Shown here: piece after piece, positions 1-36,074 of the stretch
Layout of the letters: each line of letters opens with the position of its first letter
Position numbering within the stretch: the first letter of the stretch is position 1
Virus record (IMG/VR): IMGVR_UViG_2579778635_000006
From: a virus
Lineage: Duplodnaviria; Heunggongvirae; Uroviricota; Caudoviricetes
DNA: 36,361 bases
Reading direction: 5' to 3' (one strand)
Position numbers and translations under genes: made by a program
Notes under the pieces: generated by a model
Database searches by the model: none
The model's input: only the letters and a program-made list of their open reading frames with translations
What the model was told of the DNA's origin: nothing

Positions 1-1056
1 TTATGACGGGGTAATGCCAACCGCTGCCGCCACTTTGTCGCCACTTGGCAGCGTTGCCAGAGGATTGAAACGGAGCGCCGTTTCCAGATGATCCGGTGCC
101 AGATGTGCGTAACGCATAGTCATTTTTATATCGTGGTGTCCGAGAATTTTTTGTAAGGCCAGAATGTTTCCACCCGACATCATGAAGTGCGCCGCAAACG
201 TATGGCGCAGAACGTGTGTGAGTTGACCGCGAGGGAGCACGATAGACGTTTTTTCCATTACGGATAAAAATTGAAAATAGCAGTCTGTGAAGAAATTGAA
301 TCCATCAAGCGCCATGATCTCTTCATAAAGCTCTTTACTGATAGGGATGCTTCTGTTTTTCTTCCCCTTCGTTCTTACAAAGGTAATTCGGTATTTAGTC
401 ACCTGTGATCGGGTAAGGTTTATTGCTTCTCGCCAGCGTGCGCCTGTGCTTAAGCATATCTTGACTACCAGTGCCAGAATTGGGTCCTGACGTTTGCAAT
501 CAGCCAGCAGTTCAACAATCTGCTCATGGGTAAGCCATGCCATCTCTTTTTCTGCGATGGTGAATTTTCGCATGTTCTCCAGTGGGTTTGGATACGACCA
601 TTCGCCCAGGCGGGATAGTTCGCTAAAAACACTACTTAGATAGCTTTGCTCCAGGTTAATGGTGACCGGGCTGGCTCCTTTCTTCCATTTCTCGCTGAAG
701 TAGATCTCACCGGTCAGGCGTTTATCTCGATAGTGGGCAAACATTTTAGAGGTGAGATTGGTTGCAAGAGGATTGCCTAGAGCGTCAACCATCAGCAGCA
801 ATTTGTCATAGACATGCTGCCCAGCAGTCAGAGATTTACCATGTAATTTGAACCATAGCTCAACCACGTCTTTCAGGGTTCGACGATCCACTGATTCGCC
901 CAGCCAGGGCTTTGATTCGGTTTCTTCCATCGTGTGACGCTCAAAAGCCAGAGCTTCGCCTTTGGTGGCGAATTGTTTACGCACACGACGCCCACTTCGT
1001 CCGGCGGGGTAACATTCGCAAAGCCATTTCCCTGTGGTGAGTTTTCGTACTGCCAT
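1..1056 (-). CDS. int: Tyrosine integrase, P2/186 Int family
   Basis: 351-aa ORF. The C-terminal catalytic region (LSTGARWREA, HVLRHTFAAHF, ILGHHDIKMTMRYAHL) fits tyrosine-recombinase signatures. It sits next to the att repeat and the cI repressor, as in P2 and 186. Confidence 0.95.
   Translation of the reverse strand: MAVRKLTTGKWLCECYPAGRSGRRVRKQFATKGEALAFERHTMEETESKPWLGESVDRRTLKDVVELWFKLHGKSLTAGQHVYDKLLLMVDALGNPLATNLTSKMFAHYRDKRLTGEIYFSEKWKKGASPVTINLEQSYLSSVFSELSRLGEWSYPNPLENMRKFTIAEKEMAWLTHEQIVELLADCKRQDPILALVVKICLSTGARWREAINLTRSQVTKYRITFVRTKGKKNRSIPISKELYEEIMALDGFNFFTDCYFQFLSVMEKTSIVLPRGQLTHVLRHTFAAHFMMSGGNILALQKILGHHDIKMTMRYAHLAPDHLETALRFNPLATLPSGDKVAAAVGITPS
22..44. repeat. attL: Putative attL core (cgctgccgccactttgtcgccac), overlapping the 3' end of int
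   Basis: Matches 33507-33529 at 21 of 23 positions, both mismatches C/T. It lies at the outer edge of the int gene. Confidence 0.6.
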
Positions 1057-1062
1057 AAAAAA

Positions 1063-1080
1063 GCCCTCATATCAGAGGGC
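1063..1080 (-). terminator. Hairpin (gccctc-atatca-gagggc) with a T-run on the minus strand, abutting the int start codon
   Basis: Inverted repeat seen directly. On the minus strand the stem is followed by TTTTTT and then the int ATG. The 3' arm also contains the GAGGG that would act as the int ribosome-binding site. Confidence 0.5.
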
Positions 1081-1126
1081 TAAATTTAACTGTATATTTG
1101 ACCAGTAGTCAATGTATGGTTTTTAC

Positions 1127-3115
1127 TTAAAAAACATTCTTATCCCCGTGGAAAAAACGTGCAACGTTCAATAGCCAGTCGGGGGTTTTTATTTCATTTG
1201 AATTTGCTAGTATTTCTAAATATTTTTCGCAAAATTCATTTTTTTTTCCTGGTAATTCGAAATAATCCTCAATAGCTTTTTTTTCTGTAATGTTAAGATT
1301 CAAAGCGCCTCCCGATACTGAAGACTCCATTAACTGTGGGGTTTCCATAAAGGACAAACTAGTTTCTCCTTTAGTGTAAAGCATTTTCAGAGTTTCTACG
1401 TAGAAATCAGCATTAAGAGACTGCTCAATTTCTGTAGGTGGATAAACTCGATCATCAGTAACTTTAACAAGGCTTATATTAGATAAGTCTTTATCGAGCA
1501 AGAGTCTTCTTATTTTTATACTTGGTATTGTATCTGTAGCATCATATGGACTATATTTGTGATCTGTATCTAATAATAATAATACTTTTCCTGAGATTGT
1601 TGCTTTGCGATCCTCTAACGCCATAACGAGTAAATTATATATTTTTTTTACTGTAGGGGAGCCACCGACGGATAAAACTATTAGTTTCTCAATGTTTTCA
1701 TAATCCAAGTGAGCGGAAATATATTTTCTATCAGTTTTTCCTTCGCACAATATCCAGTTATAATTATTTCCAGATGTTATTGAATAAACAATTGATTGTG
1801 CTAAGTCGTGATTGCTTTTCATTTCTAAAACGTCAAGGTAAGAGCCATTTGACTCTTTTGCTAGTTCCTTTAATTCATCCTTGTAGTTTTCCAGATCGAG
1901 TGCTTTGATGTATGTTTGAGAGGGGGAAATATATATGGCTGTACCTGAGCCTGTAACAGGTAAAAAACCATACCAATGAGTTGTACAAATAGTCTGTATG
2001 CCTAGGTCGCTAATTTTTTTTATTTTATCAAATTGATTAAAACATGATGTGGCATGTAAGGATAATTCAGGTTCATCAACAGCAAGAATTGTTGAGTGCT
2101 GAGATTTTTGTGGATTATGTTTTAAGAAATTGGTAGCAAGATCTAGCAATGCTTTTCTTTTTTCTCCTGAGCTTAAATTTTGCACAGGGGTATCTTTATT
2201 AACATCATCAATATGATGTAATATTTTATCACTAAAATATGATTCAATTATTTTAGATATCATATGACGTTGAGTGAAACTATTTTGTCGCTGAGATGGT
2301 TTTTTAAATTGATATCGCCCCTCAAGCTTTGTAGTTAATTGTCTAATAAAATCATTTAAGTGCGAATTTATTGCTGTAATATCCTTTTTCTTAATGATTT
2401 TACTGATTTTTTGTTGGAGATTTTCACCTAATAAAGACTGTAATAAATCGCTTTCAATCCTTGAGTATTCGGATGTGGTTATTTCTGCAGGTAGGTAAAT
2501 ATAATTATAGATATCCTTAATTGTTATTAATAGCTTAGGTAGTATATTGTTAAAATGATATTTTTTATTATTCGTCGAACTATTTTCATTTGCGAGATCA
2601 TCAATTTGCAATCGATAATCATCTATAGATTCGAAAATTGACATGTAGGGGCGAGGAATATCATTTGCAGTTTCTTTTATTATCCCAAGGGGAATTAATA
2701 AATATTCATCTGAAGAATATTTGTATTCTAGTTGCTTCCTGTGTGATATAAATTTCTCAGCTATAGGACGTTGCAATGTATTAAAAACTTCACTTTCTAT
2801 TTGCCAAGTGATATCGCTTACGATTTCTAATGCTTTGTATAGGGAATTATTTATCTTTAGCTTGTTTTTATTTATTAAATAAATTGGCACAATGAATGGT
2901 TCTCGAGTATCGAAACCTTGACTGCGCGCTTCATTGTTGATATCAAGTCTATTGATATCAGTTTTATTTAGTACAATATCTAATGCTTGTAATATTGAGC
3001 TTTTCCCGACACCATTTTCACCAATGAGCCAAGAGGATTTATTGTTTAAAGTGAGAGGGATATAATGTTGATTTTTGAAATTCTTGAAATTTCGTAAAAT
3101 AACACCAATAATCAT
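1127..3115 (-). CDS. OLD-family ATP-dependent nuclease: N-terminal ABC-type ATPase fused to C-terminal TOPRIM (class-1 OLD or fused AriA-AriB/PARIS-like)
   Basis: 662-aa ORF. Walker A is GENGVGKSS near the N-terminus and Walker B-like is ILAVDEPELSLH. The C-terminal region has the TOPRIM signatures CEGKTD and LLLDTDHK. The gene is visibly AT-rich against the phage backbone and lies between cI and int. Confidence 0.8.
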   Translation of the reverse strand: MIIGVILRNFKNFKNQHYIPLTLNNKSSWLIGENGVGKSSILQALDIVLNKTDINRLDINNEARSQGFDTREPFIVPIYLINKNKLKINNSLYKALEIVSDITWQIESEVFNTLQRPIAEKFISHRKQLEYKYSSDEYLLIPLGIIKETANDIPRPYMSIFESIDDYRLQIDDLANENSSTNNKKYHFNNILPKLLITIKDIYNYIYLPAEITTSEYSRIESDLLQSLLGENLQQKISKIIKKKDITAINSHLNDFIRQLTTKLEGRYQFKKPSQRQNSFTQRHMISKIIESYFSDKILHHIDDVNKDTPVQNLSSGEKRKALLDLATNFLKHNPQKSQHSTILAVDEPELSLHATSCFNQFDKIKKISDLGIQTICTTHWYGFLPVTGSGTAIYISPSQTYIKALDLENYKDELKELAKESNGSYLDVLEMKSNHDLAQSIVYSITSGNNYNWILCEGKTDRKYISAHLDYENIEKLIVLSVGGSPTVKKIYNLLVMALEDRKATISGKVLLLLDTDHKYSPYDATDTIPSIKIRRLLLDKDLSNISLVKVTDDRVYPPTEIEQSLNADFYVETLKMLYTKGETSLSFMETPQLMESSVSGGALNLNITEKKAIEDYFELPGKKNEFCEKYLEILANSNEIKTPDWLLNVARFFHGDKNVF

Positions 3116-3135
3116 TTTTTGTCCTTTAAAATTAA

Positions 3136-3726
3136 TTATTTACAAGTCATAATTACTTTAGCGATGATATTAACATCACTGATATTGCACTCTATTTTTT
3201 TTGATTTTGACTCTAGCATTATGCGGTTATTAGGTAACCTCATTAATTCTCGAACAGAATATATACCGTCAATGGCAATCAACCATAACCCATCATCAAT
3301 CTCATCCACACCTCGTCTCACGACATAAGTTATATGCTCATGCTCAAGAGCTGAGATATCTTTTAGGTCATTTGGCAATAGTGATAAATCAAAAATTAAA
3401 TAGCCATTATCAATCAGTTTGCCATCGATAATTTTCTCTCTGGTCAGGCTTACAACATGCGATTTTGCATCCACATACATGGGGCCTTCAGCTGCGGATA
3501 GCCAACGAAGTGAAATACCTGTTTCTAACGCACATTGAATTATCCAATCAGCGGGGAATGTATCTCTCATATATCGATTAGCTAACGTGCTTTTAGAAAC
3601 ACCAAGATGTTCAGCCAAAGCCTGTCGTGTCGTAAAGCCATAAGCTTCGACTAATCGCTCAATCGCAGCCTTACCACCTTTATTGGGATTTATTTTGATC
3701 TCACTTGGGTACTTTGATGTTGACAT
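3136..3726 (-). CDS. cI: Immunity repressor, 186 CI family
   Basis: 196-aa ORF. N-terminal HTH region (AYGFTTRQALAEHLGVSKSTLANRY) and C-terminal domain resemble 186 CI (recalled from memory). It is divergent from apl/cII across the switch region. Confidence 0.9.
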   Translation of the reverse strand: MSTSKYPSEIKINPNKGGKAAIERLVEAYGFTTRQALAEHLGVSKSTLANRYMRDTFPADWIIQCALETGISLRWLSAAEGPMYVDAKSHVVSLTREKIIDGKLIDNGYLIFDLSLLPNDLKDISALEHEHITYVVRRGVDEIDDGLWLIAIDGIYSVRELMRLPNNRIMLESKSKKIECNISDVNIIAKVIMTCK

Positions 3727-3821
3727 ATCTCTTTTGCGATCCTAGTATCACTTTTGTCCCCATTTGGGTACTTGTCACGATTACTACAGGCTCACCACAA
3801 GCCAATAGGAGATGTTGCATC
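3727..3821. promoter_or_regulatory. Lysis-lysogeny switch region (pR/pL-type promoters and CI operators expected)
   Basis: Intergenic region between divergent cI and apl, by analogy with the 186 switch. Exact promoters and operators were not resolved by eye. Confidence 0.5.
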
Positions 3822-9141: not shown

Positions 9142-9233
9142 TTACGCGGGTTAACAATTCGTGCTCTTAATAATACCAGGCATATCAGGCCGATGAACGT
9201 AAAAAAACGTTTTACATCAGTAAGATTATTATA

Positions 9234-9253
9234 TACTGTAAATATAAACAGTG
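9234..9253 (+). promoter_or_regulatory. LexA (SOS) box TACTGT-N8-ACAGTG overlapping the promoter of the tum-like operon
   Basis: CTGT at 9236-9239, an 8-nt AT-rich spacer, ACAG at 9248-9251: this fits the CTGT-N8-ACAG consensus. It lies about 40 nt upstream of the 9294 start, as for the 186 tum promoter. Confidence 0.7.
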
Positions 9254-9293
9254 GTTATGTGTACAGTATTGTTTTGGTGTCATAGGAGGAAAG

Positions 9294-9482
9294 ATGCAGG
9301 ACTATTTTTTGGAGTCTTTGAAGCTCCAGCGCATTGATTTTTTTCTTAAGCTTGTAGCGGCTAGTGAGTGTAGTGATGAAGAGAAGGGGCTGGCTCTGCA
9401 GTGGGTTTCTGAATTGACTGATGAACTCATGGCAAAAATCAGAAGCCACGAATACAACCGCTCAATGGATGTCATCAGCTGA
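9294..9482 (+). CDS. Small SOS-controlled protein at the position of the 186 Tum antirepressor N-terminal region (hypothetical)
   Basis: ATG at 9294 with AGGAGGA upstream. It directly follows the LexA box. 62 aa. Confidence 0.6.
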   Translation: MQDYFLESLKLQRIDFFLKLVAASECSDEEKGLALQWVSELTDELMAKIRSHEYNRSMDVIS

Positions 9483-9492
9483 GGTGACTTTT

Positions 9493-9726
9493 ATGCGCAT
9501 TGAAATAATGATCGATAAAGAGCAGAAGATTAGCCAGTCTACCCTGGACGCCCTTGAATCCGAGCTTTACCGCAATCTGCGCCCCCTGTATCCCAAAACG
9601 GTAATTCGCATTCGCAAAGGTAGCTCTAACGGTGTGGAACTAACCGGACTGCAACTGGATGAAGAAAGAAAACAAGTGATGAAAATTATGCAGAAGGTGT
9701 GGGAGGACGACAGCTGGCTGCATTAA
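9493..9726 (+). CDS. DinI-family protein
   Basis: ATG at 9493 with GAGGTGA upstream. The product (MRIEIMIDKEQKISQSTLDALESELYRNL...VWEDDSWLH) matches the DinI pattern: MRIE start, central aromatic, C-terminal acidic W. Confidence 0.8.
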   Translation: MRIEIMIDKEQKISQSTLDALESELYRNLRPLYPKTVIRIRKGSSNGVELTGLQLDEERKQVMKIMQKVWEDDSWLH

Positions 9727-9734
9727 GAAATGTT

Positions 9735-9763
9735 GCCCCCAGGAGGATTCATTCTGATGGGGG
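9735..9763 (+). terminator. Possible hairpin terminator after the dinI-like gene
   Basis: gccccca ... tgggggc inverted repeat followed by a T-containing tract. The loop is long, so this is weak. Confidence 0.3.
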
Positions 9764-9918
9764 CTAGTTTGGGCAATGAGTGAAATAAGGCGTAAGGTGG
9801 GCGGTTATTTTGATCAGTGATCGTCCGCTTTGTGTCAGAAGCAGAAGTGGGAGTGTCTGAGACTCTCTAAAAGTTGATGATTCACTTACAAAACCATTTT
9901 CCTGATGGATGCTTACAC

Positions 9919-10254
9919 TTACGAATGATCATTCTGTTTAGTCTTCATGAGAAAATCCCGAATCTTTGCCAAGTTTGAATTTTCGGGGATTGAATCCATG
10001 TACGGATCACGCTCAAACACTAATTGCTCAGATTCAACGAAAGCCTGCCACTCTACTGGGTCTAGCTCAAATCCCATTGCTGTCATATCACTTTCATCTT
10101 CCCCCTCGATCCAGTGGACTAAATAAAACAATTCATCATCAGGAGAATCATCCTCACCATCAACAATATCAACATCGGTTACAGTGATACGTAGGGTGGG
10201 ATCGATTTTTGAGACATAAATTCCTAACTGTGGTATAGGGGGAATATTGTTCAT
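9919..10254 (-). CDS. Highly acidic small protein (111 aa), hypothetical; candidate DNA-mimic/anti-restriction or immunity-type protein
   Basis: ATG with AGGAG about 6 nt upstream on the minus strand. About 26 D/E against about 7 K/R by eye. Opposite orientation to the flanking early genes, in a cos-proximal accessory region. Confidence 0.6.
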   Translation of the reverse strand: MNNIPPIPQLGIYVSKIDPTLRITVTDVDIVDGEDDSPDDELFYLVHWIEGEDESDMTAMGFELDPVEWQAFVESEQLVFERDPYMDSIPENSNLAKIRDFLMKTKQNDHS

Positions 10255-10633
10255 GGAAACTCCTTTTATTGGTGTTTGCTATTTGAATAAAAATACGCCA
10301 AACAGAGTGTTAACTGTGAATATGGAAAGAATCGTTGTAAGTACCCCGCTTAGGTGTCCCATTCTATTTTAGAGGTTCTCGTGCATATGGATTATGTTAT
10401 CTGAAAGTTAACTTCCGCTTCCCGTTCACAGCGAACATTCATCTTTGTAAACCCGTATGGTCCGTTTTTCAAGTGGCCATTCAGATACGGATTTTTACTT
10501 CTTTGACAGTGCATGACTATGCTGCATGAAATCGCATGATCGATTGAGGATCGTCTTTGCTCAGATCCGCCAGAACTGGCGGGCTTTTGCTCATGTCATG
10601 CATGTGCATGAAAACCACTGCATAAAGCGGGCA

Positions 10634-10652
10634 GGCGTGGCGGGGATACGAG
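10634..10652. other. cos: Candidate cos site (cohesive-end region)
   Basis: ggcgtggcgggga matches the first 13 nt of the 186 cohesive end as I recall it (GGCGTGGCGGGGAAAGCAT). Location between the early-region end and the portal gene is the expected one. Confidence 0.4.
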
Positions 10653-10733
10653 CGCGCGGATGAGTAATCTATACCATCATCTTGATAAAAGTATTAAAAA
10701 TGGTAAATTTAGCAAGCTACATATTAAAGGAAA

Positions 10734-12131
10734 ATGAAGATGTATGAAGTAATTGATATATCAGCGCAGGAAATTAAGGCGTTGTTAAACACTGCTGAAG
10801 ATCATTTCAATGATTTTAAAAGTAAGCAAATAGCGCCTAATAAATTACAAGAAACTTTTGTAGCATTTGCAAATGCTGATGGCGGTAATATTTATATTGG
10901 CATAGAGGATGCAGCTTCGGGGAGAGAGCGTATATCTGGTTTCAATGAGCCAGAGGAAGCGAATGCTATTATTTCGACCTTATTGGAAAATACTAATCCA
11001 GCTGTTGAGAATGTTGAGGTGGAATATTTAAGAACACCTTCCAATGGATTGATTTTACATGTGGATATACCAAAAAGCCCCAAAGTTCATTACACGGCCT
11101 CTGGCGATTGCTTTATAAGAGCTAACGCGCAAAAATTAAAAATAAAAGGTGAGCGAATTACTCAGCTTTCCTATTCTAAAGGCGCAGAACCTTATGAAAA
11201 AAAAGCAGTGGATATAGTTGAAGTAGAAGATATTCTTGAAAGTGAATATTATTCTGATTATTTACGTAGAATAGGAACGACTCAGTCACCGAGAGTTTTT
11301 TTAAAAAAACAACGACTGTTAACTAAGAAAGATGGTGAATTTGTCCCGAATGTAGGCTGTGTTTTACTATTTGATGAAGAGCCTCAAGGATGTTTAGATA
11401 CTCGATGTGCTGTAAAAGTATATCGGCTTAGAACAACTGAAGCAGAGTACAAACGTGAACAATTACAGGAAGATCCTGTAACGATTGAGGGGCCACTTGA
11501 AGTGGTTATTTTAAATACAATAGCAAAAGTAAAAGAATATGTTGATGGAGCATCATTCAAAGACGGCGAAAATCTAGTAAAACTTAGCTATCCTGCAGAA
11601 GCATTGAAGGAAATATTAGTTAATGCTGTTATTCATAGAGATTACAGCCAAAAGGATGATGTGCACGTAAAAGTTTATGACAACCGGATTGAAGTTCAAA
11701 GTCCAGGCAGATTGCCTGGATACATGACTATTAATAATTTATATGAAGAGCGGTTTTCTCGTAATCCAAATTTAGTGCGTTTGTTGCATAAACTTCCCAA
11801 TCCAGTGAACCATGATATTGGTGAGGGGCTTGATACTGCAAAAAATGAATTGCGTAAGGCCGGGTTGGTAGCCCCGGTATTTGAAGAAAGGGGCAATAAT
11901 TTTGTTGTAATAGTTAAGCATCAAACAATAGCCTCAATTGAGGATGTGATTATTAATTATTTTAAAGAAAATCCAACGGGACAGCTCACAAATAAGTTGG
12001 TTAGACAATTAAGTGGCGAAGATGACCTTCAAAAGGTTAAAAAGGCATTGCAAAAGTTAAGGGAGGAGGGCGTAATAAAACCATTAGATCCTAACGCGAA
12101 TCCTTTCAAATTTAAATATATTAAAGCTTAA
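10734..12131 (+). CDS. AlbA_2 (Schlafen-like) + HATPase_c_4 + C-terminal wHTH protein; candidate defence/exclusion cargo
   Basis: 465-aa ORF with AAGGA upstream. N-terminal AlbA_2-type signature (DFKSK...FVAFANADGGNIYIGIED), central HATPase_c_4-type signature (NAVIHRDY...DNRIEVQSPGRLPG...SRNP), then a helix-rich tail. Strongly AT-rich against the backbone. Followed by a bidirectional terminator. Confidence 0.8.
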   Translation: MKMYEVIDISAQEIKALLNTAEDHFNDFKSKQIAPNKLQETFVAFANADGGNIYIGIEDAASGRERISGFNEPEEANAIISTLLENTNPAVENVEVEYLRTPSNGLILHVDIPKSPKVHYTASGDCFIRANAQKLKIKGERITQLSYSKGAEPYEKKAVDIVEVEDILESEYYSDYLRRIGTTQSPRVFLKKQRLLTKKDGEFVPNVGCVLLFDEEPQGCLDTRCAVKVYRLRTTEAEYKREQLQEDPVTIEGPLEVVILNTIAKVKEYVDGASFKDGENLVKLSYPAEALKEILVNAVIHRDYSQKDDVHVKVYDNRIEVQSPGRLPGYMTINNLYEERFSRNPNLVRLLHKLPNPVNHDIGEGLDTAKNELRKAGLVAPVFEERGNNFVVIVKHQTIASIEDVIINYFKENPTGQLTNKLVRQLSGEDDLQKVKKALQKLREEGVIKPLDPNANPFKFKYIKA

Positions 12132-12135
12132 GTTA

Positions 12136-12165
12136 AAGGTGGAGGTTGTCTCCACCTTTTTTCAT
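12136..12165. terminator. Bidirectional rho-independent terminator between the cargo gene and portal gene Q
   Basis: aaaggtggag-gttg-tctccaccttt hairpin flanked by A- and T-runs, between convergent genes. Confidence 0.65.
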
Positions 12166-12182
12166 AGGTAATGATTTTTAAA

Positions 12183-33529: not shown

Positions 33530-33741
33530 CGTTAAAAAACAGTGCTTCTAACATCATGATTTTAAAAGGCATAAATTTCAGGCAACAAAAAACCCATCAA
33601 CCTTGAACCGAAATGGCGGGGTTGATGGGCTCCACAAAATGGGGACATCAAAGAAAAGCAGTGGCACTAATTAAGACTGATGCCCTGCGGAAAAGTTCTG
33701 CGGTTGTGCAAAAAAATTTCATTTTCAGGGCAACTTCAGTT

Positions 33742-35427
33742 TTATCCTAATCCTGGCCATACCATGACGATGATTGTCCCTGCCAGCGTCAGCAGGACGT
33801 TGGCGATTGCGTAGGTGCCCGCATAGCCCAGCGCAGGGATGTTACTGCGAGCTGTATCACTGATGATCTCCATTGCCGGCGCGCAGGTGCGTGCGCCCAT
33901 CATTGCGCCGAACAACAGTGCGCGGTTCATTCGCAATACATAAGCACCGAACAAGAAACAGATAACCACGGGCACAAGACTGACAATTAATCCGGCAATC
34001 AACATCTGACCGCCAATCGCGCCCAGGCCGTTATTAATACCGCTACCGGCGCTCAGACCAACGCCTGCCATAAACACCATCAAGCCGAACTCTTTCACCA
34101 TGCTTAATGCACCTTGCGGAATGTAACCGAAGGTCGGGTGGTTAGCACGCATAAAGCCCAGCATAATTCCGGCGAATAACAACCCGGCAGCGTTCCCCAT
34201 GCCGAAACTGAATGTGCTGAACTGGAAGGTGATCATCCCGATCATCAGCCCAATAACAAAGAAGGCGCAGAATGCCAGCAGGTCAGTGACCTGGCTGTGA
34301 ATCGAGATAAAGCCGATGCGATCGGCGATGGTTTTTACGCGGCGGGCATCGCCGCTGACTTGTAAAACGTCACCTTTGTTAAGCACGACGTTGTCATCTA
34401 TCGGCATCTCAATCTGGCTACGAATGACGCGGTTAAGGAAGCAACCGTGATCGGTCAACTTCAGTTGTGCGAGACGTTTACCTACAGCGTTATGGTTTTT
34501 AACGACCACTTCTTCAGTGACGATACGCATGTCGAGAAGGTCACGATCGAAAACTTCTTTACCGTTACGGAAGCTGGGATCGAGTCGGGCATGGGCGTCG
34601 GGATAGCCTACCAACGCTATTTCATCGCCCATTTGTAGCACGGCATCACCGTCTGGATTTGCCAGAATCCCGTTACGTCGAATACGTTCAATGTAGCAGC
34701 CGGTTTGTCGATAAATACCCAGTTCACGCAGATTTTTGCCGTCGGTCCAGGCCACCAGTTCCGGGCCGACGCGATAGGCGCGGATCACCGGTAAATAAAC
34801 CTTACGGTTGGCATCAGTGTCCAGGCCACGTTCGCGGGCGATTTGCTGGGCGCTGGTCTGTAAGTCCTGATGCTGCAATTTCGGCAAGTAACGCGCACCA
34901 ACAATCAAACTCACCAGACCGATTAAATAGGTTAAGGCATACCCGAGGCTCAGATTATCCAGTGCCAGTGAGAGCTGCCTGCTTTCCATGCCGGAATGAC
35001 GCAGTGTATCGCCAGCACCGACCAGAACCGGTGTCGACGTCATAGAGCCTGCTAACATACCGGCCGTCAGGCCAATATCCCAGCCAAACAGCTTACCTAA
35101 CCCTAAGGCGATCACCAGCGCACTGCCAACCATCACCAGTGCTAACATTAGGTAATTTTTCCCATCGCGAAAAAAAATGGAAAAAAAGTTCGGTCCGGCT
35201 TCGACCCCGACGCAGAAAATAAACAGCATAAAGCCAAGATTAAGCGCATCGGTGTTAATGCTGAAATGTTGTTGGCCTAATAACAGCGATACGACTAAAA
35301 CGCCAATGGAATTACCCAGTTGGATCGAACCAAGTCGTAACTTTCCGAGACATAGCCCAAGCGCGAGGACCACAAATAATAACAGAATGTAATTCCCATT
35401 TAACAATTCGGCGACGTTTATATTCAC
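33742..35427 (-). CDS. ybjL: Putative transport protein YbjL (AAE-family transporter with two TrkA_C domains), host gene
   Basis: 561-aa product recognised as E. coli YbjL. Apparent GTG start. Confidence 0.93.
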
Positions 35428-35696: not shown

Positions 35697-36074
35697 GTGA
35701 AACATAAACAACGTTGGGCGGGGGCAATCTGCTGTTTTGTCCTCTTCATTGTGGTGTGCCTTTTTCTGGCGACGCACATGAAAGGCGCTTTTCGGGCTGC
35801 CGGGCATCCTGAAATCGGCTTGCTATTTTTCATTCTTCCTGGAGCAGTCGCCAGCTTCTTTTCACAGCGTAGAGAAGTCCTGAAACCTCTGTTTGGCGCA
35901 ATGCTGGCGGCACCCTGTTCGATGCTCATTATGCGGCTGTTTTTTTCACCGACGCGCTCATTCTGGCAAGAGCTGGCATGGTTACTAAGCGCGGTGTTCT
36001 GGTGTGCGCTGGGGGCACTGTGTTTCTTATTTATCAGTAGTTTGTTTAAACCACAGCACAGAAAAAATCAGTAA
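35697..36074 (+). CDS. ybjM: Inner membrane protein YbjM, host gene
   Basis: 125-aa hydrophobic protein with the conserved ybjL-ybjM-grxA synteny. Confidence 0.9.
   Translation: MKHKQRWAGAICCFVLFIVVCLFLATHMKGAFRAAGHPEIGLLFFILPGAVASFFSQRREVLKPLFGAMLAAPCSMLIMRLFFSPTRSFWQELAWLLSAVFWCALGALCFLFISSLFKPQHRKNQ

Follow-up and report, generated by a model that had tools for sequence, protein, structure and literature searches.

An OLD-family ATPase-TOPRIM gene between cI and int of a 186-like Escherichia coli prophage is predicted cargo for anti-phage defence

[quoted passage not shown] In phage 186 itself, the corresponding genes cI and int are immediate neighbours, as a sequence-only reading of this locus had stated, with a 1-nt overlap in the NC_001317 annotation. 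The stretch of DNA analysed here (36,361 nt, hereafter the window) carries a prophage integrated between rcdA and rybB/ybjL, in which a 662-aa ORF with an ATG start is wedged between these two genes on the same strand; its coordinates agree with that reading (Table 1). Exactly 20 nt separate the cI stop from the ATG, and this spacer (TTAATTTTAAAGGACAAAAA) contains AGGA, while 70 nt lie between the stop of the ORF and the int ATG. The same ORF is present in RefSeq as WP_032286372.1, labelled "AAA family ATPase", from genome NZ_CP119006.1, whose DNA is 100% identical and where the gene also stands alone. A literature search on the accession found no mention of it.

Table 1. Features of the locus, with positions in the window.
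Feature	Coordinates	Strand	Evidence or remark
OLD-family ATPase-TOPRIM gene, 662 aa	1127..3115	-	ORF, Pfam, PADLOC, hhalign, Foldseek
186-type CI repressor gene, 196 aa	3136..3726	-	Pfam Phage_CI_repr 2.6e-30, Phage_CI_C 3e-23
Tyrosine integrase gene (int), 351 aa	1..1056	-	Pfam Int_N 2.4e-32, Phage_integrase 6.9e-22
cI-to-old spacer, 20 nt, SD-like AGGA	3116..3135	-	without terminator; too short for a promoter
AT-rich variable cassette, 32% GC: cargo gene and the cI segment for the C-terminal domain	1122..3517		blastn breakpoints, GC
Promoter-like TTGACT-18-TAAATT with LexA-box-like palindrome ACTGGTCAAATATACAGT (1089-1106) in the spacer	1083..1112	-	scan; kept in sister prophages
Hairpin AGCCCTC-TGATAT-GAGGGCT, then T6 and the int ATG; terminator-like	1062..1081	-	z -3.0
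ABC-type ATPase region with helical insertions, about residues 1-400	1916..3115	-	
Walker A GENGVGKSS, residues 32-40 (K38)	2996..3022	-	G32, N34, G35, G37, K38 and S39 invariant
ABC signature-like LSSGEKR, residues 314-320	2156..2176	-	S315, S316, G317 and E318 invariant
Walker B LAVDEPELSLH, residues 344-354 (D347, E348)	2054..2086	-	aligned to P2 Old IFIDEPELYLH
H-loop region TTHWYG (H380)	1967..1984	-	H380, W381, Y382 and G383 invariant
TOPRIM domain and C-terminal helical region, about residues 450-662	1130..1768	-	
TOPRIM glutamate motif CEGKTD, residues 457-462 (E458; D462 at +4)	1730..1747	-	aligned to P2 Old VEGKTE and YbjD VEGETE
TOPRIM DxD motif LLLDTDHK, residues 513-520 (D516, D518)	1556..1579	-	aligned to YbjD VDGDE
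PPTEIE, where the helical region starts; T561 and E564 probably coordinate metal B	1424..1441	-	T, I and E invariant; position probably analogous to BpOLD T506/E508 (PMC6755086)
K625, invariant lysine in C-terminal helix	1241..1243	-	candidate equivalent of BpOLD K562, by order and spacing only

The evidence supports the protein as a member of the OLD family, with an ABC ATPase and a TOPRIM domain bearing its glutamate and DxD motif both present. Pfam AAA_15 matches residues 1-380 (1.1e-20), and the PADLOC Old model (1.5e-17) spans the ATPase into the TOPRIM region. The Pfam OLD-like_TOPRIM model is matched by 14 of the 41 family members (best 8.8e-6) and reaches only E 0.05 on the 662-aa sequence itself. 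A profile comparison with the OLD classes, GajA and PARIS had been proposed earlier. By hhalign, the family aligns with P2 Old at 98% probability (E 1.5e-13) over 215 columns that include Walker B and the TOPRIM glutamate, and DUF4435 was found in none of the 41 members. The significant P2 Old match rests on the ATPase C-lobe and the first TOPRIM strand; the C-terminal profile alone matches P2 Old weakly. That C-terminal profile had no significant match in the PDB and retrieved no solved TOPRIM, so that fold comparison was needed. Against the same database, the whole-family profile matched ATPase regions and nothing else, and phmmer gave only marginal matches to SMC P-loops. With the full model (pLDDT 83.5), Foldseek ranked GajA, the retron Eco8 OLD and TsOLD on top (E 1e-11 to 1e-9), and SMC and Rad50 heads below them. 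No NCBIfam model came near its cutoff for this protein, and the PHROGs matches were to families of unknown function only.

The four motifs quoted in the sequence-only reading (GENGVGKSS, LAVDEPELSLH, CEGKTD and LLLDTDHK) are all there. They are not chance matches, since K38, D347, E348, E458, D516 and D518 are invariant in a family alignment of 41 sequences with 33-87% identity. The LSSGEKR motif aligns with the signature region of retron ATPases and SMC. Four further positions, D/E462, T561, E564 and K625, are conserved or invariant; by order and spacing in the sequence, they are candidate counterparts of the BpOLD set E404, T506, E508 and K562, the last being the catalytic lysine (PMC6755086).

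By context the gene belongs to Class 1, because it is a lone gene without a partner. No helicase, reverse transcriptase or DUF4435 partner was found in the window or beside the homologues in Citrobacter, Serratia, Aeromonas, Vibrio and Pseudomonas, and no retron RNA was found in the window, where RybB is the sole Rfam match at the gathering threshold. The locus differs in this from Gabija GajA (Class 2), as there is no adjoining GajB-like UvrD/PcrA helicase here or at the homologues examined, and from the retron Eco8 OLD (Class 3), as the same places have no adjoining reverse transcriptase or msr-msd ncRNA. P2 Old and other Class 1 OLDs are stand-alone genes as well. At 662 aa, the protein falls outside the usual Class 1 range of 500-600 aa, and full-length family members measure about 625-700 aa. 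A length filter of about 500-600 aa was used by Patel & Seed, after Schiltz et al., and proteins above 600 aa were dropped from the Vc OLD phylogeny (PMC12392090); such a filter would therefore remove most of this clade. The clade is small and separate (about 225 clusters at 50% identity), with homologues in Enterobacterales, Aeromonas, Vibrio and Pseudomonas in which every catalytic residue is invariant.

Phage P2 Old, the protein that excludes phage lambda and is expressed from its prophage, is likewise a lone prophage gene in a P2-family hotspot with an ABC ATPase fused to a TOPRIM nuclease, and the alignment of the two covers Walker B, the H-loop and the TOPRIM glutamate. However, only about 24% of the aligned positions are identical, and the pair is not linked by phmmer. 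P2 Old has 586 aa, and the surplus residues of the 662-aa protein are scattered and form no added domain. The P2 gene has a promoter of its own in the gpA|portal hotspot, whereas the gene described here lies behind cI. Triggering of P2 Old is linked to RecBCD, and the protein cleaves tRNA anticodon stems (tRNA-Thr) in an ATPase-dependent manner (PMC12445682). Vc OLD of Vibrio cholerae and YbjD/OldB of E. coli are also lone OLD genes, very distantly related to the one described here, and the anti-phage phenotypes in this comparison are theirs. Vc OLD nicks DNA and needs both ATPase and nuclease (PMC12392090). For YbjD, the hhalign probability is 42%; its TOPRIM glutamate, DxD and downstream acidic glutamate align with E458, D516/D518 and E564. 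The YbjD TOPRIM is dispensable for its anti-phage phenotype (PMC13261556), and the nuclease therefore need not be the effector.

The AT-rich, acquired character of the insert is borne out by composition and by presence/absence variation between sister prophages: GC is 31.4% in the OLD ORF versus 52.8% in the rest of the prophage and 48.5% in int. The unit of acquisition, on the other hand, is larger than the gene alone. Breakpoints from blastn against sister prophages fall at about 1121-1137 and about 3500-3518, the latter inside cI, and comparison with a prophage carrying PD-lambda-1 gives 72/81 identical residues in the cI N-terminal domain versus 37/107 in the C-terminal domain. The acquired cassette thus takes in the gene, as supposed, and with it the stretch of cI that codes for the C-terminal domain. 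A strict linkage between that domain and OLD cargo was considered and is ruled out by a Serratia prophage with a 58%-identical OLD and a cI whose C-terminal domain differs, with 36/101 residues identical.

The slot between cI and int is a hotspot for cargo. The same att site and flanks surround the OLD gene, SNIPE/PD-lambda-1 (PADLOC 3e-120), a KAP NTPase (PDC-S20, 8e-84) or unknown genes in sister E. coli prophages, and in ESSI2_ev040 the slot is empty. SNIPE is an experimentally validated defence (10.1101/2025.11.03.685801). Among 5426 complete E. coli genomes, 8 have the OLD gene and 336 more share only the int-proximal spacer; in the phage GenBank collection no copy of the gene was found, and only the int-proximal spacer was matched. 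Elsewhere, homologues occur in an Aeromonas prophage, at 62% identity and within the gpA|portal defence hotspot classically known from P2, and in a lambdoid prophage of V. cholerae, at 37% identity and as an accessory (moron-like) gene. The position had been put forward as one not usually described. This claim fails because the slot has already been published: of the passages retrieved from two sources, those of Rousset 2022 (PMC9122126) describe that cI and int flank a defence hotspot in P2-related (K139-like) Vibrio phages, and those of a 2026 preprint (10.64898/2026.02.27.708500) assign 8% of the defence systems of P2 to the interval from integrase to primase. As in the hotspot of those passages, cargo is varied here and includes SNIPE/PD-lambda-1 and KAP NTPases, in this case in a 186-like lineage of E. 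coli, Citrobacter and Serratia. The same retrieved passages do not mention a left cassette junction inside cI, nor a LexA-box promoter and hairpin on the int side. We infer a defence function for the OLD gene, which is very probably an anti-phage gene in this already recognised variable slot.

How the gene might be expressed depends on the two spacers. Between cI and the OLD ORF, we found no terminator and no minus-strand promoter-like site, and the consensus scan detected no promoter of the gene's own. The scan also missed the lysogenic promoter upstream of cI, giving only a rightward pR-like site at 3720-3748. Judging from this arrangement, co-transcription with cI is plausible. The int side looks different from the "cI-int operon" of the sequence-only reading, a notion that is doubtful in this lineage because a conserved terminator-like hairpin and a LexA-box-like promoter separate the cargo from int. 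The hairpin is kept in six lineages with differing sequences (-11.7 to -14.9 kcal/mol), and the SD-like GAGGG of int sits in its 3′ arm. LexA-box-like palindromes occur at two loci in the window versus 0.08 expected.

In E. coli, H-NS frequently silences genes of about 31% GC, and for this reason the "constitutive" expression proposed earlier is uncertain. It is reasonable to ask whether the gene is silent or nearly so in the lysogen, through H-NS or polarity after cI, and hitch-hikes on a swapped immunity module with no native phenotype. Its low GC, its rarity among E. coli genomes, the lack of a detected promoter and its physical linkage to the swapped cI C-terminal domain would all fit. However, the ORF is intact and its catalytic residues are invariant across homologues from four bacterial groups, which requires selection on the protein, and the 20-nt spacing with an SD-like sequence behind the essential, expressed cI favours expression. 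We regard silent cargo as improbable. Another possibility is a role in the prophage life cycle, be it DNA processing in excision or replication, control of lysogeny, or killing of hosts that lose RecBCD function. The gene does lie inside the lysogeny module beside int and cI, P2 Old was first noticed through a lysogenisation phenotype (PMC10568477), and some OLD proteins work outside defence, such as the archaeal Cran1, which has a role in the cell cycle. Such a role is nonetheless very unlikely, given that close relatives lack the gene and carry unrelated defence genes or nothing in the same slot, and that the same family is found at unrelated positions and in non-P2 elements.

The sequence-only reading had also likened the architecture to fused AriA-AriB (PARIS, Class 4), in which the ATPase would sense a phage anti-restriction protein such as Ocr and the attached TOPRIM would cut tRNA-Lys-type targets. 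The P2 Old half of that comparison stands, on the hhalign match and the lone gene, but the PARIS half has no backing from its marker. AAA_15 is present, yet the AriA model of PADLOC has the same length and coverage as this Pfam model and is therefore generic. At E <= 0.01, none of the 41 family members matches this marker, DUF4435 (PF14491); the profile of this single polypeptide can be aligned with P2 Old without a break between ATPase and TOPRIM, and its full-length fold matches are GajA, the Eco8 OLD and TsOLD. We consequently set the PARIS reading aside, granting it about the same small chance as silent cargo.

The best overall explanation, and one that we consider probable though far from certain, is that this lone OLD ATPase-nuclease, carried as slot cargo, would be expressed with cI and act in defence triggered by infection. 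We hypothesize that one transcript from the lysogenic promoter covers cI and OLD and stops at the hairpin before int; with such a cI-linked transcript, a low level of OLD protein would always be present in the lysogen. The single polypeptide joins an ABC-type ATPase (K38, SSGE, D347-E348, H380) to a predicted two-metal TOPRIM nuclease (E458, D/E462, D516xD518, T561/E564, K625); it would oligomerise via the ATPase domain and stay inactive until a cue from another infecting phage. ATP binding or hydrolysis may then license the TOPRIM site to cut double-stranded nucleic acid. P2 Old and AriB offer the analogy for tRNA stems as substrate, which we favour slightly; Vc OLD and GajA offer that for DNA nicking, which would be nearly as likely. 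Either way, the superinfecting phage would be stopped, probably by abortive infection.

No branch of this widespread defence family is less well understood than the lone (Class 1) OLDs. To our knowledge, tests have been limited to P2 Old, Vc OLD and YbjD, and the three differ: tRNA is cut, DNA is nicked, and the phenotype is TOPRIM-independent, respectively. The clade described here offers an easily cloned single-gene example from E. coli in its native expression context behind cI. More tentatively, and with doubt prevailing, we suggest that these lone OLDs of about 650 aa may have a trigger and a substrate of their own, and that in 186-like prophages they may travel with a repressor oligomerisation domain and form part of the immunity transcript, with defence on precisely while the prophage is repressed and at no other time; the hairpin and an SOS-controlled int promoter would insulate the integrase. 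This is a further member of the OLD kind and no new type of system; known concepts are extended and none is overturned. The enterobacterial 186-like cI|int slot is a well-used cargo site, SNIPE included, and the locus suggests how 186-like prophages keep integrase expression apart from the transcript for immunity and cargo.

The 662-aa ORF between cI and int is an OLD-family ATPase-TOPRIM nuclease by domain, profile, fold and residue evidence, as the sequence-only reading had proposed. Pfam AAA_15 (1.1e-20) and related models of the ABC/SMC type hit the N-terminal 380 residues. On the C-terminal part of the protein itself, Pfam OLD-like_TOPRIM gave no better than E 0.05, so the TOPRIM claim was checked by further routes. 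A family search returned 290 relatives, mostly of 640–665 aa, from Enterobacterales, Aeromonas, Vibrio, Shewanella and Pseudomonas; within a family alignment of 41 members (33–87% identity), 14 match OLD-like_TOPRIM, the best at 8.8e-6. Profile comparison of the family with P2 Old gave 98% probability (E 1.5e-13, 215 columns) over a stretch spanning the ATPase C-lobe (Walker B, H-loop) to the first TOPRIM strand, with CEGKTD opposite VEGKTE; E458, D516xD518 and E564 align, though weakly (E 2.7e-4), with acidic motifs in YbjD/OldB from E. coli. The AlphaFold model of the full-length protein (pLDDT 83.5) has GajA, the retron Eco8 OLD and Thermus TsOLD as top Foldseek matches (E 1.5e-11 to 1e-9), with SMC and Rad50 heads ranking below them. 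Invariant across the family are K38, D347, E348, H380, E458, D516, T517, D518, T561, E564 and K625; every member has D or E at position 462. The conserved TOPRIM residues appear to correspond, in order and spacing, to the BpOLD catalytic set (E400, E404, D455, D457, T506, E508, K562; PMC6755086); we infer the counterparts of T506, E508 and K562 by order and spacing, without superposition.

OLD classes are set by gene context (PMC10568477). The ORF is flanked by cI and int, with no helicase or reverse transcriptase beside it and no retron RNA found by Rfam in the window, and homologues are lone genes in all contexts examined; the protein is therefore Class 1 by context. The same cI|int slot holds the homologues of Citrobacter (87% identity) and Serratia (58%). 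The Aeromonas rivipollensis homologue (62%; locus L019, 4001–5980) lies in the classical gpA|portal hotspot of a P2-like prophage, so that one OLD cargo family is found in both P2 hotspots. The V. cholerae homologue (37%) occupies an accessory, moron-like position in a lambdoid prophage; others lie in small chromosomal islands of Pseudomonas and Aeromonas or, on a metagenomic contig, adjoin an MqsRA toxin-antitoxin pair. At 662 aa, the protein falls outside the Class 1 length range of 500–600 aa, and alignment offsets relative to P2 Old distribute the extra length along it, with no added domain. When 1.84 billion cluster representatives were searched exhaustively, the relatives numbered only 438 with E <= 1e-3 and 225 with E <= 1e-30, nearly all of 625–700 aa and aligned end to end. 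The protein thus belongs to a small, well separated clade that stands apart from most GajA and P2-Old-like sequences. The architecture had been likened both to P2 Old and to fused PARIS proteins: the former likeness stands by profile, and the latter is not supported, since DUF4435 is matched by none of the 41 aligned members. A PADLOC "AriA" match was rejected as a sign of PARIS: it equals Pfam AAA_15 in length and coverage and is thus unspecific.

Gene order, the 20-nt gap, all four motifs and the low GC read from the sequence were confirmed. The spacer from the cI stop to the OLD ATG, TTAATTTTAAAGGACAAAAA, includes AGGA, and GC is 31.4% in the OLD ORF versus 52.8% in the remainder of the prophage.

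Features of the prophage and its host flank in the window
Feature	Position	Strand	Remarks
int, tyrosine integrase	1-1056	-	at window start
Terminator-like hairpin	1062-1081	-	AGCCCTC-TGATAT-GAGGGCT + T6 run; after promoter-like site, abuts int ATG
Promoter-like site	within 1056-1112	-	TTGACT-18-TAAATT; in 70-nt spacer downstream of OLD ORF
LexA-box-like palindrome	1089-1106	-	ACTGGTCAAATATACAGT; between TTGACT and TAAATT
OLD ORF	1127-3115	-	662 aa; upstream of int
OLD motifs	residues 32-40, 344-354, 457-462, 513-520
cI, 186-type repressor	3136-3726	-	upstream of OLD ORF
LexA box	9235-9252		ACTGTAAATATAAACAGT; perfect palindrome, ~170 nt upstream of DinI-like ORF
DinI-like ORF	9421-9726	+	Pfam DinI 1.2e-22; just after gpA
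465-aa protein	10734-12131	+	Schlafen AlbA_2 3e-18, HATPase_c_4 3.5e-17
RybB sRNA	33584-33662	-	host DNA; Rfam 105 bits
ybjL (Asp-Al_Ex permease)	33742-35427	-	host DNA
ybjM	35697-36074	+	host DNA

No terminator-like or minus-strand promoter-like site was detected between cI and the OLD ORF, and, with the pL/pE lysogenic operon annotated in 186 (NC_001317) as a guide, the most economical interpretation is that old would be co-transcribed with cI. Given its low GC, H-NS silencing of old is a real possibility. That cI adjoins int in 186 proper agrees with the same annotation, where both overlap by one base; in the window lineage, in contrast, a LexA-box-like palindrome and a terminator-like hairpin lie between cargo and int. 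The 3′ arm of the hairpin carries the int Shine-Dalgarno-like GAGGG. Only two loci in the 36 kb fit the pattern ACTGK-N8-ACAGT, versus 0.08 expected, and the second locus precedes the gene resembling DinI, a classic SOS gene. The LexA-like box and hairpin are retained in sister lineages whatever the cargo, with different stem sequences in two lineages, and the box of phage ESSI2_ev040 is a perfect CTGT-N8-ACAG. This conservation points to int being expressed under SOS control and kept apart from the transcript of cI and cargo: transcription reading through from cI and cargo would stop at the hairpin, which would also mask the int ribosome-binding site, and integrase would be made from an SOS-derepressed promoter starting within the hairpin. 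If this model holds, the cargo would be part of the cI transcription unit and not of a cI-int operon. Of the proposed insertion into such an operon, the placement directly behind cI is upheld; a single unit with int is doubtful, as the predicted hairpin and LexA-box promoter intervene.

Of 5426 complete E. coli genomes, 8 have the OLD gene, at 99.7–100% identity and each time in the order rcdA-int-old-cI, and 336 more match only over 60–73 bp adjoining int. Alternative cargo, in a sample of those 336 genomes and related phages, comprises SNIPE/PD-lambda-1 (558 aa; PADLOC 3e-120), a validated defence (10.1101/2025.11.03.685801), KAP-family NTPases (PADLOC PDC-S20, 8e-84) and uncharacterised genes of 314–349 aa, downstream of an unusually long cI, that have no Pfam or PADLOC match; the slot is empty in ESSI2_ev040. 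As a hotspot for cargo and defence genes, the cI|int slot is already published: the view that this position is not usually described as one is outdated, as Rousset et al. 2022 report it in K139-like Vibrio phages (PMC9122126) and, in a 2026 preprint, the int-primase interval accounts for 8% of P2 defence systems (10.64898/2026.02.27.708500). Some sister cI genes (loci L023, L024, L004 and L025) encode 292–313 aa, versus 196 in the window; the L025 prophage has two cI-like genes in tandem, then a KAP NTPase, and another, L029, has ISKox3 inserted between cargo and int. The queried 2079-bp segment (1057–3135) is 100% identical to strain CE0021a (NZ_CP119006.1; loci L001 and L016). The int-to-ybjL distance is ~1 kb greater in that genome, so the prophage copy in the window differs slightly from the one there.

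Homology to sister prophages ends at ~1121–1137 and returns at ~3500–3518, within cI; the exchanged AT-rich cassette thus has its left junction in this gene, at the boundary between the HTH and C-terminal domains of CI. The DNA-binding domain is identical to that of a SNIPE-carrying prophage at 72 of 81 positions, and the C-terminal domain, whose coding part is also AT-rich (34% GC), at 37 of 107. Among the prophages, near-identical CI DNA-binding domains are paired with very different C-terminal domains and different cargo. A strict linkage between the C-terminal domain and OLD cargo was considered and is not absolute: an OLD-carrying Serratia prophage has another C-terminal type.

The classical P2 gpA|portal hotspot of the window (9142–12182), a 39% GC region, is occupied too; the 465-aa AlbA_2/HATPase_c_4 protein has partial PADLOC matches to pAgo-associated models and may be a second defence cargo. 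Host DNA (RybB, ybjL, ybjM) at the right window end places the prophage between rcdA and rybB, possibly with the rybB gene end as attachment site.

The ATPase and the two-metal TOPRIM site look intact and, judging from family alignments, under purifying selection; the gene that encodes them stands alone, is mobile and is associated with prophages. We hypothesize that the protein would be a standing sentinel in the lysogen: a superinfecting phage would give a cue upon which it would cut nucleic acid, and ATP turnover would gate its nuclease. Of the three best matches to the C-terminal domain, two are defence-system Toprim effectors, namely that of retron Eco2 and AriB, which cuts tRNA-Lys. P2 Old, the lone OLD of a prophage that has been characterised, cuts off the anticodon stems of tRNAs, with ATP hydrolysis required (PMC12445682). 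For both reasons the target is perhaps slightly more likely to be tRNA or structured RNA, with abortive infection as the outcome, than DNA, which is nicked by Vc OLD (PMC12392090) and also by GajA. The phenotype of YbjD is independent of its TOPRIM (PMC13261556).

The OLD protein of the window is an unstudied lone OLD nuclease at a known type of prophage hotspot. The swap junction in cI, together with the hairpin and LexA box in front of int, may tell more about prophage design than the OLD gene itself.
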